Origin: Clostridia bacterium
GTDB lineage: Bacteria; Bacillota; Clostridia; CAKSNL01; HGM11501
Direction: 5' to 3'
Length of the DNA: 64,000 nt
NCBI GenBank assembly: GCA_017411325.1
Contig: JAFQQJ010000040.1
Coordinates: 133,659 to 197,658 of the forward strand
Numbering within the stretch: the first letter of the stretch is position 1; every line of letters starts with the position of its first letter. This document shows positions 14,329 through 40,657 of this stretch, piece after piece. Made by a program: the position numbers and the translations under genes. The notes beneath the pieces were generated by a model. The model searched no databases. It worked only from the letters and a program-made list of their open reading frames with translations, and was not told the origin of the DNA.

Positions 14329-14388
14329 GTAGTTTTCCCCTTTCTAAAATGCCGGACGAACCAGACCATATGCCGAGCTTTTGTAATT

Positions 14389-14443
14389 ATTGCGACACAT
14401 AAGGTTTAGATGCAAACCTTTTTGGTGTCAAGTTCGTGTCAAG
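14389..14443. repeat. 55-bp direct repeat, copy a (upstream of dsdA)
   Basis: The sequence is attgcgacacataaggtttagatgcaaacctttttggtgtcaagttcgtgtcaag. By hand alignment it matches 17678-17732 at 46 of 55 positions. Confidence 0.85.
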
Positions 14444-14538
14444 TTAATACCCAAAAAATTGTTAACCCATTACAAAAATCTTTTGCTTTATCAAGCATTA
14501 TACTTTCTGCCATCTTATCACATCTATTAATTTATTTC

Positions 14539-14730
14539 AGCTAAATTTTGAACTAAAGTTCAAAACTAAATTATCTCATTTCATTCAATAGCTAAATAAC
14601 TCCTTTGGAGTAGCTAAATTAAATTCGCTTTTGTAGCTGACCGCAAGGGCAATTTAGCTACGAAGTAATTTAGCTGAACTTGTTCAATTTAGCTCGCGGT
14701 AGCGAATTTAGCTGCGTTGCCTTGCAACGC
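14539..14730. repeat. word/mini-hairpin array 1 (AGCTAAAT x3, then AATTTAGCT x4)
   Basis: AGCTAAAT occurs at 14539, 14590 and 14612. Its reverse complement AATTTAGCT occurs at 14651, 14667, 14686 and 14705. Different small stem-loops separate the words: ttttgaac-taaa-gttcaaaa, actcc-ttt-ggagt, ac-gaa-gt, gaa-cttg-ttc, cgc-ggta-gcg and gcgttgc-ctt-gcaacgc. Confidence 0.8.
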
Positions 14731-14989
14731 TCGTGTCAAGCCTGGTGAACAGTGAATAATAAGAACCATCACGAAATATAACGAAATCAAAGATTTCTAT
14801 ATTTCGGAGAACCTTGTTATGCTAAAGCATAATATAGACCTACTATTTTTCCCTTAATTTTTCACTGGATTTTCCTTAACCACTTTTCCTTAGAACCCGC
14901 GAGAATACTGAATTTTCTCGCATCCGATAGCATATGTAAATATCAAAATCGGCAAACTATTCTTTTAAATTGTATGGAATTGACACGAG
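14730..14989. repeat. about 250-bp structured repeat element E, copy 1 (MITE-like, 10-bp terminal inverted repeat)
   Basis: It is bounded by ctcgtgtcaa (14730-14739) and ttgacacgag (14980-14989). The interior matches 16769-17072. It contains the nested hairpin cgaaatata-ac-gaaatc-aaa-gatttc-tatatttcg, the hairpins ttatgc/gcataa and gcgagaa/ttctcgc, AGAACC x3 and TTTTCCTTA x3. Confidence 0.75.
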
Positions 14990-15739: not shown

Positions 15740-15767
15740 TTGCAATACTCCTTTCGCAATATTCGAC

Positions 15768-15794
15768 ATTGCGAGGCATAAGGTTTAGATGCAA
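15768..15794. repeat. partial copy (left 27 bp) of the 55-bp repeat
   Basis: The sequence is attgcgaggcataaggtttagatgcaa. It overlaps the last codons and stop of cassette P2. Confidence 0.75.
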
Positions 15795-16165
15795 TTAGTT
15801 TTTCGCTTTATAATTAAATGCTTAATTACAAATTCAATCATCATAATTACTAAATAACTAATGCCATAAACAACTGTTGTAATAAAATAAGTTAATTCTC
15901 CTTCCAAATCATACCATATCTGTTTATCGACCAAACTATGATAATATAATTGTCCGTTTATACACATTCCCATCGAAGAAGCTACCAGAATGAGCAAACA
16001 ACCTATCAAAAATTCTTTTCGACTATTGCTTAAAAACAAATTCAAAATTGATACAATAAAAGTCCATATCCAAATTGTTTTCATAAAATCTGTTCCTGCA
16101 CTTCCAAAAACCACACATGGAACTAATATTGAAATGTTTATAACACTTAATAATACTTTTCTCAT
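15785..16165 (-). CDS. hypothetical small polytopic membrane protein (islet cassette P2)
   Basis: ORF 15785..16195. The ATG at 16165 (MRKVLLSVINISILV) follows GAAAGGAG. It has about 4 hydrophobic helices and no recognisable domain. Confidence 0.55.
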   Translation of the reverse strand: MRKVLLSVINISILVPCVVFGSAGTDFMKTIWIWTFIVSILNLFLSNSRKEFLIGCLLILVASSMGMCINGQLYYHSLVDKQIWYDLEGELTYFITTVVYGISYLVIMMIEFVIKHLIIKRKTNCI

Positions 16166-17576: not shown

Positions 17577-17677
17577 TATACAAAATCTCCTTAATAAATA
17601 TTTTTATAAGCATCTCTCGATATATCTTTCTTTTAAAAGTTCATCCTTGAATATTAGACTTTTAATTTTCGATACAA

Positions 17678-17732
17678 ATTGCGAAGCATAAGGTTTAGAT
17701 GCAACTTATTTTAGTAGCAAGTTCGTGTCAAG
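17678..17732. repeat. 55-bp direct repeat, copy c (upstream of cassette P4)
   Basis: The sequence is attgcgaagcataaggtttagatgcaacttattttagtagcaagttcgtgtcaag. It matches 14389-14443 at 46 of 55 positions and is in the same orientation. Confidence 0.85.
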
Positions 17733-17800
17733 ACTGGGCCAAAAATTCACCTTATTTTATTCTATCACAAAATACCTGCCTTTTCAATAGAAACCGCATC

Positions 17801-19155: not shown

Positions 19156-19225
19156 CTTCAGCCATAGCCTACTAATTTACATCTTCCGGAAGGAGCAAGC
19201 CCCTTCCCTACAAACTATATATGGT

Positions 19226-19493
19226 ATAAATCCACACGCCGCAGGCGTATTTCATATTGCGAAGCAATATTTCACGCCCGAAGGGTATTTCACAATAGAT
19301 GCAGGTTATTTTAGTGATATTCCAACTTCGTTAGAGTGATATTTTTACAGAGTAAAAGTGATATTATATTTGCCATTAAACTGTGCGAAGCACAATATCA
19401 CTCGGTGTAATCCGAATATAACTGTGCAGCAATATAAACTTGCCAAAGGCAAATATAACTGAAAAAAGACATCCGAAGATGTCTTTTTTCTGG
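19226..19493. repeat. 268-bp word/mini-hairpin array unit R, copy 1
   Basis: It differs from 19608-19875 at 4 positions by hand alignment. Words are TATTTCAC x3, GTGATAT x3, ATATCAC x1 and ATATAA x3, separated by at least 9 small stem-loops. It ends in the terminator at 19462-19489. Confidence 0.9.
19462..19489. terminator. bidirectional intrinsic terminator hairpin (end of unit R copy 1)
   Basis: The sequence is aaaaaa-gacatc-cgaa-gatgtc-tttttt. Confidence 0.6.
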
Positions 19494-19607
19494 CTTTCAC
19501 GTACATAATAGATGCAGTATATTTTTAGTGAAATATCAACTTCGTTGATGTGAAATAATTTCTGTCGAAATTGTGAAATAGAAACCTAACGGTTTCTGTG
19601 AAATGAA
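19494..19607. repeat. array module S (GTGAAATA x4) between the two R copies
   Basis: GTGAAAT(A/G) occurs at 19528, 19550, 19573 and 19598. The copies are separated by atcaac-ttc-gttgat, aatttc-tgtc-gaaatt and gaaacc-taac-ggtttc. The leader cataatagatgcagtatattttta is paralogous to 19290-19313. Confidence 0.85.
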
Positions 19608-19875
19608 ATAAATCCACACGCCACAGGCGTATTTCATATTGCGAAGCAATATTTCACGCCCGAAGGGTATTTCACAATAGATGCAGGTTATTTTAGTGAT
19701 ATTCCAACTTCGTTGGAGTGATATTTTCACAGAGTAAAAGTGATATTATATTTGCCATTAAACTGTGCGAAGCACAATATCACTCGGTGTAATCCGAATA
19801 TAACTGCGCAGCAATATAAACTTGCCAAAGGCAAATATAACTGAAAAAAGACATCCGAAGATGTCTTTTTTCTGG
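19608..19875. repeat. 268-bp word/mini-hairpin array unit R, copy 2 (abuts tRNA-Leu)
   Basis: See copy 1. The terminator at 19844-19871 lies 1 nt from the tRNA CCA end. Confidence 0.9.
19844..19871. terminator. bidirectional intrinsic terminator, terminates tRNA-Leu on the minus strand
   Basis: The sequence aaaaaa-gacatc-cgaa-gatgtc-tttttt lies immediately 3' of the tRNA. Confidence 0.7.
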
Positions 19876-19961
19876 TGCCCGAGACCGGAATCGAACCGGT
19901 ACGACTTTTAACGGTCGCAGGATTTTAAGTCCTGTGCGTCTGCCAGTTCCGCCACTCGGGC
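19873..19961 (-). tRNA. tRNA-Leu, anticodon UAA, CCA encoded
   Basis: The minus-strand read is GCCCGAG-TG-GCGGAACTGGCAGACGC-A-CAGGA-CTTAAAA-TCCTG-long variable arm-ACCGG-TTCGATT-CCGGT-CTCGGGC-A-CCA. It folds as a class II cloverleaf with the anticodon loop CU-UAA-AA. Confidence 0.9.
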
Positions 19962-21166: not shown

Positions 21167-22198
21167 TTACTCTTCAGTATATACAGTCTTAGCAAATACA
21201 AACTTTACAATAAGCACAAGTATAACCGCAATGATGATGAAGTATGTCCATGCCATTGCCGCCGCAATACCTGCATTACCTGTTGCAACGCCGTTTTTGT
21301 CGATAAGCTGCATAACCTTGTTCTGATAATATGTGAAGGAGTCAATAATTGTATATACAACACATACAAGAGTCATGGGTGATAAAAGAGGGAATGTAAT
21401 CTTCCAGTATTCTTCCCATGCTGTTGCACCTTCCATTGATGAAACCTCGTAATAGGATTTCGGAATACCCTGAAGAGCAGAAAGATATAAAAGAATCTGA
21501 ATACCGCTCTTCCAGGTGATGTCGAAGATGTTACCTACAAGACTCTTTAAGTAGTCGATAATAGCAGGGCTAAGACCGCTCTGATTAAGAATCTTTAAGA
21601 TAACTGATTCTTCCTGGAATGTAAAGATGTTTGATGATGCATTAAGTGAAACAGAAGTGCTCATACCGGTTTTTGAAAGGATTTCCAGAATAACACCGGA
21701 TGCGATGATTACGGGAAGGAAGAACATAACTCTCGCAACAGTTCTTCCCACGAACTTCTGATTCAATATCTGTGCGATAAACATACCGAAGAATGCTATA
21801 ATCGGCACCTGATAAAGCATATCCTTAAGGGAGTCAAGAAGTGCGGGAATAAAGTCGGGATCTTTTCTGAAGATATAGATATAGTTATCTATTCCCTGGA
21901 AGTCCAGCTTTATACCGCCGGCTCTTACACCAACTTCGCAGAAGGAATATATGAGTGACGTAATAACGGGAACCAGGAATAAGAATATTACGCCGACAAT
22001 CCAGGGAAGGATGAACCAGTAACCCGCTCTTGCCTGACGTTCAGAAAGAGCTGCTGCCGCTTTTCTCTGCCGCTTTGCGCGCTTTGCCGCTTCCTTAGCC
22101 GCTTTGATTTCTTCCTTGGTAGGTTTTCTTTCGCTGTCAAGTATAACTTCTTCCTTGACCTCGGTTGAAGCAGTATTTTCTTTCTTTGCCATTATCAC
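21167..22198 (-). CDS. ABC transporter permease (MalF/LplB-like) with a Lys/Ala/Glu-rich N-terminal extension
   Basis: It has polytopic TM topology and the EAA-like loop YEVSSMEGATAWEEYWKITFP. The N-terminal 60 aa include KEEIKAAKEAAKRAKRQRKAAAA. Confidence 0.7.
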   Translation of the reverse strand: MIMAKKENTASTEVKEEVILDSERKPTKEEIKAAKEAAKRAKRQRKAAAALSERQARAGYWFILPWIVGVIFLFLVPVITSLIYSFCEVGVRAGGIKLDFQGIDNYIYIFRKDPDFIPALLDSLKDMLYQVPIIAFFGMFIAQILNQKFVGRTVARVMFFLPVIIASGVILEILSKTGMSTSVSLNASSNIFTFQEESVILKILNQSGLSPAIIDYLKSLVGNIFDITWKSGIQILLYLSALQGIPKSYYEVSSMEGATAWEEYWKITFPLLSPMTLVCVVYTIIDSFTYYQNKVMQLIDKNGVATGNAGIAAAMAWTYFIIIAVILVLIVKFVFAKTVYTEE

Positions 22199-40379: not shown

Positions 40380-40566
40380 TTCATCCGCAGTAAAATTAAG
40401 TCATTCCCCGATAGCACTCCGCAGATGCGACAGTTCAATACATATTCTGCATTGACCCAGCAGAAAAAACGTGGCTATTTTCTCCGCTTCGGCAAAAGCC
40501 CCTTTCTTTCCCTCTTCTGCCCGAAGTTTTTACCGGAAATACTTATAGCTTTTGCGCCTCTATCTC
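40380..40566 (-). promoter_or_regulatory. lysine riboswitch (L-box) with expression platform
   Basis: The minus-strand read is AGATAGAGGCGCAAAAGCTATAAGTATTTCCGG...GGGAAAGAAAGGGGCTTTTGCCGAAGCGGAG...CTGCTGGGTCAATGCAGAATATGTATTGAACTGTCGCATCT. It contains the conserved L-box blocks GAGGCGC, AGTA, GAAAGG, GCCGAAG, CTGG, TTGAA and CTGTC. AGAT/ATCT can close P1. Confidence 0.8.
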
Positions 40567-40657
40567 TTATTTTTTTATAATTTTACCATAAACGCCATAT
40601 TTCGTCAAGTCTTTTCATCAAACTTTTTGCTTTCATATATTAAATTAACCTTTTTTC

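Follow-up and report, generated by a model that had tools for sequence, protein, structure and literature searches.

The stretch of DNA studied here, called the window, is 64,000 nucleotides long and carries two arrays in which short repeated words alternate with small hairpins. Array 1 spans positions 19224-19872 and adjoins a tRNA-Leu gene (19873-19961). Array 2, the subject of this work, lies at 14.5 kb beside dsdA, and both arrays are co-directional with the minus-strand genes and with tRNA-Leu. In array 2, the word AGCTAAAT is found on the plus strand at 14539, 14590, and 14612, and its inverted form, AATTTAGCT, follows at 14651, 14667, 14686, and 14705 (spacing of 16, 19, and 19 nucleotides). 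A preliminary description of the locus had placed both words at exactly these positions, and the hairpins that it listed in the gaps are all present as well. It overlooked a truncated gene, which is key to the element, and a degenerate word at 14565.

The truncated gene is a remnant of a four-helix-bundle gene on the minus strand (14439-14513), with its ATG at 14513 and a stop after 24 codons, of which codons 1-13 (MAESIMLDKAKDF) are homologous to the intact gene. The last word and the ATG are separated by a spacer and ribosome-binding region (14514-14538, minus strand). The gene-proximal block (14539-14619, plus strand) holds words at 14539-14546, 14565-14572, 14590-14597, and 14612-14619. 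The second of these is a degenerate eighth copy, AACTAAAT, and as the fourth left-hand word it completes the canonical form of four words plus four inverted words. On the minus strand, the words of this block read ATTTAGCT, and it is on this strand that the spacer hairpins fold better. They lie at 14546-14565 (an extra hairpin with the arms TTTTGAACT and AGTTCAAAA), 14573-14589 (with tandem G.A pairs on the minus strand), and 14599-14611.

Next comes an asymmetric center (14620-14650, plus strand), which reads TAAATTCGC. It consists of the partial word TAAAT (14620-14624), TCGC, the half-word AGCT (14635-14638), and the hairpin GACCGCAAGGGC (14639-14650), which has a GCAA loop and one A.G mismatch. 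The gene-distal block (14651-14713, plus strand) holds the four copies of AATTTAGCT, spaced by the hairpins ac-gaa-gt (14660-14666), gaa-cttg-ttc (14676-14685), and cgc-ggta-gcg (14695-14704), for which the plus strand is the better-folding one. A longer terminal hairpin, gcgttgc-ctt-gcaacgc (14714-14730), adjoins the last word. At this position, relatives carry instead the terminator of the gene, tRNA, or tmRNA that lies upstream. In the window, it has 7 base pairs and no T-run, and the upstream ORF257 ends 265 nucleotides away.

Some of what had been said about the surroundings of the array needs to be revised. Array 1 had been thought to be inverted relative to array 2, but the asymmetric center puts both arrays in the same orientation on the plus strand. 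The octamer catctatt does occupy 14521-14528; it is not the conserved flanking motif it was taken for, since the counterpart in the spacer of homologues differs (catccaat in L102, cacccatt in L031, and catcctat in L052). Its match to AATAGATG of array 1 is best read as a coincidence. Another motif, TTTAGATGC, occurs in the window at 14404, 15783, and 17693 and is also seen ahead of orphan arrays, and each unit of array 1 is preceded by a form of it, AATAGATGC. It was considered as a possible promoter or attachment core. The neighboring -10-like hexamers stand at differing distances from it, and its opposite strand could be a -35.

The 8-mer AGCTAAAT/ATTTAGCT has seven exact copies in the 64-kb window, both strands counted. 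Compared to 4.5 expected, this total is unremarkable; what is unusual is that all seven are clustered within 175 nucleotides (14539-14713). Runs of at least three identical 7-mers at 12-30-nucleotide spacing are found at only four places in the window: array 2, the tRNA-linked array 1, 22055 (a single word, coding-type by eye), and 40155 (a single word, CTTCTGC three times). Block shuffles of the window yield a mean of 0.12 such runs and no 8-mer runs. The 225-nucleotide region also folds better than its shuffles on both strands, with z of -4.35 and -4.43.

Arrays with this word are widespread. A pattern scan for three copies of AGCTAAATT, with one genome per species, gave more than 120 loci among the matches listed, nearly all of them in rumen and gut MAGs of Clostridia, Oscillospiraceae, or Ruminococcus. 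Among the matches is the complete genome of Ruminococcus sp. JL13D9 (NZ_CP162392), which has a half-array or more. The contigs L001-L003 come from the same strain and are 100% identical and, therefore, uninformative. The usual form has four words, a conserved asymmetric center (word, partial word, and TCGC...), and four inverted words, and 34 of the 52 parsed units have exactly four plus four. The center motif AGCTAAAT-TAAATT... or its reverse complement is present at 72 of 130 word clusters (39 forward and 33 reverse). The number of copies per genome is high, reaching eight or more contigs in one MAG, and the paralogues L045 and L101 are 93% identical. Phages were considered as the source of the arrays and rejected, as viral contigs hold almost no true arrays (3 of 24 pattern matches, one of them at a tRNA).

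Other arrays of the family are direct-only, with up to 13 units and recent tandem duplication. These often begin -11 to +32 nucleotides from the stop codon of a co-directional gene, and the upstream neighbor is co-directional in 19 of 27 cases. For example, JL13D9 has a three-unit array between a stop codon and the terminator; a position in a transcribed 3′ UTR is frequent, as with L074. At 33 of 44 loci, the neighboring gene on the distal side runs in the same direction, and its end is often 5-60 nucleotides from the array; a tRNA or tmRNA is adjacent at 8 of 55 loci of the AGCTAAAT set. In many orphan arrays, a conserved leader with -10-like hexamers (TATAAT/TAGAAT ... TTTAGATGC) stands on the left, and the right end meets a bidirectional terminator. 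The hexamers of these leaders are at inconsistent distances from the motif, and the leaders show no conserved -35.

The role of the truncated gene becomes clear from its intact relatives. When the ORFs within 3 kb of the 52 units were clustered, the sole recurrent neighbor was a PF05635 gene, whose side and strand never varied, with the start codon of this ~118-amino-acid PF05635/TIGR02436 gene 8-30 nucleotides past the last word. The gene adjoins only about one array in ten. It has the same start as the window remnant and is 117-122 amino acids long in L031, L052, L057, L102, L116, and L121. The protein of L052 matches Pfam PF05635 ("23S rRNA-intervening sequence protein") with an E-value of 2.9e-28, and the cassette protein also matches TIGR02436 ("four helix bundle protein"). 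Its closest solved structure is PDB 2RLD (E-value of 2e-41), an entry with five chains. PF05635 is homologous to Avd, a protein of diversity-generating retroelements (DGRs) (PMC10053308). L116 carries two modules in tandem, with the words AGCTAAAT and TGCGATAT/ATATCGC (four plus four) and proteins that are 49% identical.

Array and gene together form a discrete block of ~560 nucleotides that is 81%-87% identical between MAGs with different flanks, and its two edges are the last word and a point just past the stop codon. Within 3 kb of the arrays, no reverse transcriptase, integrase, transposase, toxin, or HUH gene is recurrent. In the hairpin class, no target-site duplications were seen at the cassette ends, and no empty site was found. 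Around the array, the window copy and L102 share 90% identity, and this extends no farther than -64 and +27. The ATG of the window copy is 25 nucleotides from the word at 14539, and the sequence after codon 13 is unrelated, with the stop after 24. As the similarity to L102 ends at -64 and the ORF is short, the window gene has been lost after codon 13, which makes array 2 a relic or orphan. This means that the array, if it is active today, relies on a cognate protein from another place in that genome.

Array 1 connects these arrays to a described RNA family. Against the covariance model of Gut-1 (RF01706, gathering threshold of 50 bits), it scores 55.7 and 55.1 bits, with weaker matches on its other units; array 2 has no match to this model at the gathering threshold or at E≤5. 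The Gut-1 motif has been known from human-gut metagenomes only, with no organism, gene association, or function given (Weinberg et al. 2010, PMC2864571), and its Rfam entry lists it as a small RNA (sRNA) with covariation. Our literature searches on Gut-1 and PF05635 returned nothing that connects the two and nothing further on Gut-1 after the 2010 description. The Gut-1 consensus is a repeated "UGAAAU word - hairpin," and its seeds have a center with GCGAAU, a partial word, and an inverted word and are located after a tRNA terminator. Centers homologous to this one (GCGAAT and a partial word) are also found in other word classes. At the center, the Gut-1 seeds read GCGAAUAUA-AUAUCAC, and the minus strand of array 2 reads GCGAATTTA-ATTTAGCT.

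The likeness between arrays of this family and Gut-1 lies in a 7-nucleotide word (GUGAAAU/GUGAUAU) between at least three variable hairpins, the same center, and the position after a tRNA terminator; the difference is that the Gut-1 model covers one half-array and that the word of array 2 is AGCTAAATT. Array 2 has the variable hairpins of Gut-1, at least three of them flanked by the same word and with covarying stems. It also has the arrangement of the cassettes, in which four (three to five) words, an asymmetric center, and four (three to five) inverted words follow one another: three of its direct words are exact and one is degenerate, and four are inverted. The gene that stands 8-30 nucleotides past the last inverted word on the same strand is there as a remnant only. 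Gut-1 is one half of a cassette array of the GUGAAAU/GUGAUAU word classes, and array 2 belongs to a sister class (AGCTAAATT) of Gut-1-like arrays, a member by architecture and center and not by the model. It can be said with high confidence that array 2 genuinely belongs to a large Gut-1-like word class not described before and is the relic leader of a PF05635 cassette. What is new here is the recurrent partner gene, PF05635/TIGR02436 (Avd-like), typically after a tRNA or tmRNA terminator. The above-threshold Gut-1 matches of L153, L155, L192, L211, L177, and L154 sit exactly between a tRNA and this gene.

How general is this partnership? A metagenome scan with an alignment of the cassette proteins found 492 relatives, and the best 80 of the 492 were fetched, 75 of them with a full-length protein and at least 200 nucleotides of upstream sequence. 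Word arrays are present upstream in 68 of these 75, of which 36 are hairpin-spaced, in seven word classes (TTTAGCT, ATAT[CA]AC, ATTTCAC, RTTTCAT, CTTCAC, GATAT(C), and ATATCGC), and 32 form a hairpin-less heptad class. The heptad class has contiguous heptads in two inverted runs with no hairpins, as well as a locus-specific second copy of the terminator arm. No other gene is recurrent within 1.5 kb of the 80 four-helix-bundle genes, and PADLOC gave no match. The link to tRNA genes that had been suggested from the window alone is genuine: a co-directional tRNA is upstream in 33 of 60 scanned four-helix-bundle loci, ending ~150-270 nucleotides before the ATG in the examples read. At least 13 tRNA species are represented, and the terminators of protein genes are used, too. 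The proposal that the architecture and not the word is conserved holds as well, as related genomes show the same grammar with seven or more different words.

The words and the proteins change together. In a UPGMA tree of the 75 proteins, word classes coincide with clades, and protein identity is 0.74 within word classes compared to 0.54 between them, a difference reached by none of 2000 label permutations, although linked descent alone would yield some congruence of this kind. There are also class-specific protein columns, such as 38, 52, 57, 72, and 82. All eight words change in concert between protein clades, and the hairpins drift freely. The best explanation for this combination would be a reader encoded by the cassette, whose sole product is the four-helix-bundle protein. 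One could consider instead that word and inverted word pair into a long rod, which is attractive for the AGCTAAAT class. This was rejected on the conserved central mismatch in L153, window unit B, and L062. In mixed-word arrays, the nested partners are not complementary, so the words are not kept for pairing: L153 is mismatched in all four pairs, and window unit B and L062 have ATATCAC in one block and ATATAAC in the other. With moderate confidence, the words would be cognate sites of the cassette protein in single-stranded nucleic acid.

The hairpins behave differently from the words. There are 14-25 distinct stems per spacer position among ~50 units, and when the two arms are taken from different units, they pair in only 27%-51% of cases. 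Perfect stems of at least 4 base pairs are several-fold to tens-of-fold more frequent than in shuffles, and the stems contain 1175 Watson-Crick pairs compared to 44 other pairings (24 wobble-type and 20 other mismatches). The hairpins are under selection. An attempt to identify the transcribed strand from the counts of G.U and A.C pairs (16 versus 8) was abandoned, as there are too few wobble pairs.

In both halves of the array, the better-folding strand of the spacers is the one on which the word reads ATTTAGCT, that is, 5′ to 3′ away from the center. This preference comes from the loops, which on that strand are mostly C(GAA)G, C(GCA)G, C(GTA)G, and C(GNNA)G. On this outward strand, there are 84 cases of C(GNA)G and practically none of its complement, C(TNC)G, and tandem G.A pairs are likewise found on it. 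The third loop base has no purine preference, with 25 GNRA loops and 25 other GNNA loops. The other word classes obey this loop rule, too: the gene sense strand has G..A loops 26 times and T..C loops 8 times in the proximal block, and T..C loops 35 times and G..A loops 11 times in the distal block. Following the outward rule, the gene sense strand of the distal half, like that of many direct-only arrays in 3′ UTRs, shows the complement.

The loop rule fits either outward transcription from the center or exposure of single-stranded DNA on either side of it. Triloops of the GNA type with a closing C-G pair are classic examples of stable mini-hairpins in DNA, known from the d(GCGAAGC) literature, and together with the near-absence of G.U pairs they suit single-stranded DNA at least as well as RNA. 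A conserved sigma-70-type promoter was not found within the arrays or at their center, and no site has a fixed place (at most 8 of 52 units). An internal or central promoter, including a bidirectional one, was also rejected, as a -10-like sequence at the center is present only in AT-rich word classes and not in the CTTCAC class. The array is usually preceded by a strong terminator.

The best explanation as a whole, to which we give a little less than an even chance, is that array 2 was once the leader of a one-gene cassette and has decayed, and that the words are candidate sites of the cassette protein. Such cassettes are common in gut and rumen Oscillospiraceae and other Clostridia. In the orientation of the window minus strand, the intact order begins with a gene, tRNA, or tmRNA upstream, ending in its terminator or in a long hairpin. 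This is followed by four words of 7-9 nucleotides, each with a short hairpin of free sequence after it, the conserved center with its partial word, and four inverted words, each preceded by a hairpin, and the PF05635/TIGR02436 start codon comes 8-30 nucleotides later. The words would be recognition sites of the cassette's own protein, with AAUUUAGCU/AATTTAGCT serving a protein of the L102/L052 type, and the hairpins may merely space the words and expose them in single-stranded nucleic acid. The roughly four full words and one partial word per block would suit a pentameric ring that wraps the strand, by analogy with TRAP. Since the last word adjoins the ribosome site, binding could control expression or processing of the cassette itself, and the protein would also target orphan arrays at other places in the genome.

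Four parts of this explanation are ones that we infer: binding of the protein to the word, single-stranded RNA as its form, wrapping by a pentamer, and autoregulation. RNA is favored only slightly over single-stranded DNA, and confidence is low both in this choice and in the cassette's role for the cell or for itself. Against the best explanation, the gene accompanies only about a tenth of the arrays, the arrays have a strong terminator in front and yielded no conserved promoter, the outward G..A loop rule is not predicted by an mRNA-leader model, and, to our knowledge, Avd-like proteins are not sequence readers. One could extend the explanation to the whole family. In this extension, PF05635/TIGR02436 proteins outside DGRs would be sequence-reading rings with their own 7-9-nucleotide word per clade, and Gut-1-type arrays, whose word copies are kept apart by hairpins of free sequence, would serve them as multivalent single-stranded platforms for binding. 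The cassette, selfish or regulatory, would seek out terminators and ride on the operons of tRNA, tmRNA, and rRNA (the last as intervening sequences [IVS]), and the orphan arrays in UTRs, such as the one at dsdA, would be a word-addressed regulon or non-autonomous copies. Taken jointly, these four proposals are a tentative possibility that we would sooner doubt than accept.

Several known systems resemble the cassette in part. The 23S rRNA IVS of Coxiella and Leptospira (PMC4990558) also place a small PF05635 gene on a stable-RNA unit; they have inverted repeats, have been described as selfish, and carry an ORF that is prone to decay, as has happened to the window gene. However, an IVS lies inside helix 45 of 23S rRNA, and its inverted repeats, which RNase III cuts, flank the ORF, whereas the cassette has both repeat blocks upstream of the ORF and downstream of a tRNA, tmRNA, or gene terminator, with a repeated word and hairpin spacers. 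The DGR accessory protein Avd belongs to a homologous four-helix-bundle family, and related structural-genomics entries have five chains. Avd is a reported nucleic-acid-binding pentamer (bAvd literature), and we know of no cognate repeated words for it. The cassettes differ from its setting in having no reverse transcriptase, template repeat, or variable repeat nearby. TRAP resembles the cassette protein only in how it works: it is a ring oligomer that reads several short words, (G/U)AG repeats, in a wrapped single strand near a ribosome site or terminator. Its fold is unrelated (an 11-mer beta-sandwich ring), and it binds 11 triplets with 2-3-nucleotide spacers and no hairpins.

The REP/BIME elements of enterobacteria are likewise multicopy intergenic palindromes of alternating orientation just past genes and terminators. 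In these, the palindrome is conserved together with a 4-nucleotide linear tag, whereas here the palindromes are free and a 7-9-nucleotide word is conserved. Membership was rejected, as the linear word stays constant and the stems vary, with 14-25 different ones at each position; a gene of the RAYT type was not seen. A CRISPR array was also rejected, as the repeats are 8-9 nucleotides long (not 23-50), the spacers are palindromes of 7-25 nucleotides, and the two blocks are inverted. A type III toxin-antitoxin RNA (ToxI-like) was rejected, too. It has 34-45-nucleotide near-identical tandem repeats ahead of a terminator and toxin gene; here the units vary in sequence and length, and the downstream gene is PF05635, with no PADLOC match.

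Array 2 could be a DNA-level element acting as single-stranded or cruciform DNA, a REP/BIME- or MITE-like repeat copied beside intrinsic terminators. Array plus gene would then be the autonomous form and orphans the non-autonomous one, and the words would be DNA sites for mobility, replication-associated processing, or handling of supercoils. Several observations favor this: d(C-GNA-G) and GNNA loops with no purine preference at the third position are a signature of stable DNA mini-hairpins, the stems are nearly pure Watson-Crick, and the loop rule has two-fold symmetry around the center, like sites used on opposite strands. So do the many copies per genome, with paralogues as close as L045 and L101, the insertions after many different tRNAs, tmRNA, and protein genes, the recent tandem duplications of units, and the second copy of the terminator arm in the heptad class. 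However, the hairpin class has yielded no target-site duplication or empty site, and its neighborhood has no recurrent gene for a transposase, integrase, reverse transcriptase, or HUH protein. Hairpin sequences also vary between copies, unlike those of copy-and-paste repeats, arrays such as that of L074 often lie in transcribed 3′ UTRs, and we know of no catalytic motif in the four-helix bundle. On balance, this explanation is unlikely but deserves to be taken seriously.

A free-standing structured sRNA of ~200 nucleotides, running from a ..TAGATGC.. leader to the terminal hairpin or terminator and acting through RNA structure or RNA-RNA pairing independently of the four-helix-bundle protein, would agree with the Rfam entry for Gut-1. 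It would also agree with the leaders and bidirectional terminators of many orphan arrays and with folding above shuffles (z of about -4.4). However, array 2 of the window has a gene remnant where such a leader would be, and the -10-like hexamers stand at inconsistent distances and have no conserved -35. Pairing between word and inverted word is not conserved in mixed-word arrays, and the concerted change of eight words with protein clade and the fixed distance of 8-30 nucleotides to the start codon are left unexplained, all of which makes an sRNA improbable. The remaining explanation, with which the preliminary description's idea of an islet border belongs, is an array of attachment or arm sites at the border of a tRNA-adjacent integrated islet, or iterons of a replication origin. 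Arrays do adjoin tRNA and tmRNA genes, and the two in the window bracket ~4.5 kb in which some genes lack a significant Pfam domain. However, no integrase, Rep gene, recurrent recombinase, or other recurrent gene for such a role is found at the arrays, no terminal duplication is seen, and at least 13 tRNA species and protein-gene terminators are used. The spacing of the words is unphased (16-27 nucleotides), the two arrays have the same orientation when the ends of an island would be inverted, and viral contigs are nearly devoid of true arrays (3 of 24 matches). This explanation is largely refuted and has very little probability left.

Gut-1 has been an orphan Rfam family since 2010, and it is now placed in the genomes of Oscillospiraceae and related Clostridia with a gene partner. 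That partner, PF05635/TIGR02436, is a very large "hypothetical" family whose sole studied members are the Avd proteins of DGRs and the ORFs of 23S IVS. With the two tied together, and with word and protein clade changing jointly, their function becomes testable. The array in the window is a relic and, on present evidence, is not to be taken as a regulator of dsdA. If the protein binds its own word, the family would offer a natural set of orthogonal protein-word pairs, as well as a new means by which small cassettes take advantage of stable-RNA operons.

Array 1, the tRNA-linked array beside tRNA-Leu, is made up of four tandem units (19224-19872). They are of three types: one half unit with the word ATTTCAC, two almost identical GTGATAT/ATATAAC units and one GTGAAAT/ATTTCAC unit. 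In the GTGATAT units, the words of one block are not complementary to those of the other. The terminator of the tRNA-Leu gene is present twice, with 19461-19490 identical to 19843-19872, and the second copy is inside the duplication. Three arrays in other genomes that have direct words only are made up of 8-13 AGCTAAAT units (L030, 2555-2739; L047, 3627-3876; L015, 6046-6242) and contain blocks of almost identical units, the stems of which carry changes on both sides. Such arrays therefore expand through recent tandem duplications, with compensated changes in their stems.

Another sequence recurs near gene starts in the window. There are three plus-strand copies of TTGCGAnnCATAAGG-TTTAGATGC-AA... 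(14385-14443, 15764-15800 and 17674-17740), two of them followed by AAGTTCGTGTCAAG, and on the minus strand these copies are upstream of or at the annotated starts of the dsdA-like gene, ORF257 and ORF161 (DUF4177). In other genomes, many orphan arrays (those with no adjoining four-helix-bundle gene) also have TTTAGATGC ahead of them, and AATAGATGC is found in front of every unit of array 1. The TTTAGATGC motif could be a common promoter or operator, or a piece of a repeat unit. A perfect 10-nt inverted pair, CTCGTGTCAA (14730-14739) and TTGACACGAG (14980-14989), flanks the 240 nt that separate the ORF257 stop from array 2, the array beside dsdA. Direct copies of TCGTGTCAAG are present at 14423-14443.

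Some four-helix-bundle genes (PF05635) are preceded by leaders of a hairpin-less class (L162-L175, L183-L191, L205, L212-L225 and L060). The first element past the tRNA terminator is a set of 4-5 contiguous heptads (ACTTATT CACTCTT CACTTTT ...). The second is the terminator 3' arm with its T-run and GG, repeated as a locus-specific second copy that is complementary to the CCA end of the tRNA together with the 5' arm. Inverted heptads follow, then a small hairpin that has a U-rich tail, and finally the ribosome site. The arrangement could reflect either duplication of a target or a switch by alternative pairing.

The window also carries a complete lysine riboswitch aptamer (40404-40570, minus strand, 112 bits) and four copies of GCCGCTT(T) spaced 12-17 nt apart (22055-22105). 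The latter run has neither hairpins nor inverted copies; by eye, it resembles a coding-type repeat of the minus strand rather than a word-and-hairpin array. At L153, a Gut-1 array and a four-helix-bundle gene lie just downstream of a 6S RNA gene (974-1155), which has one tRNA gene on each side. The 6S RNA is a further stable-RNA neighbor of the four-helix-bundle cassette.
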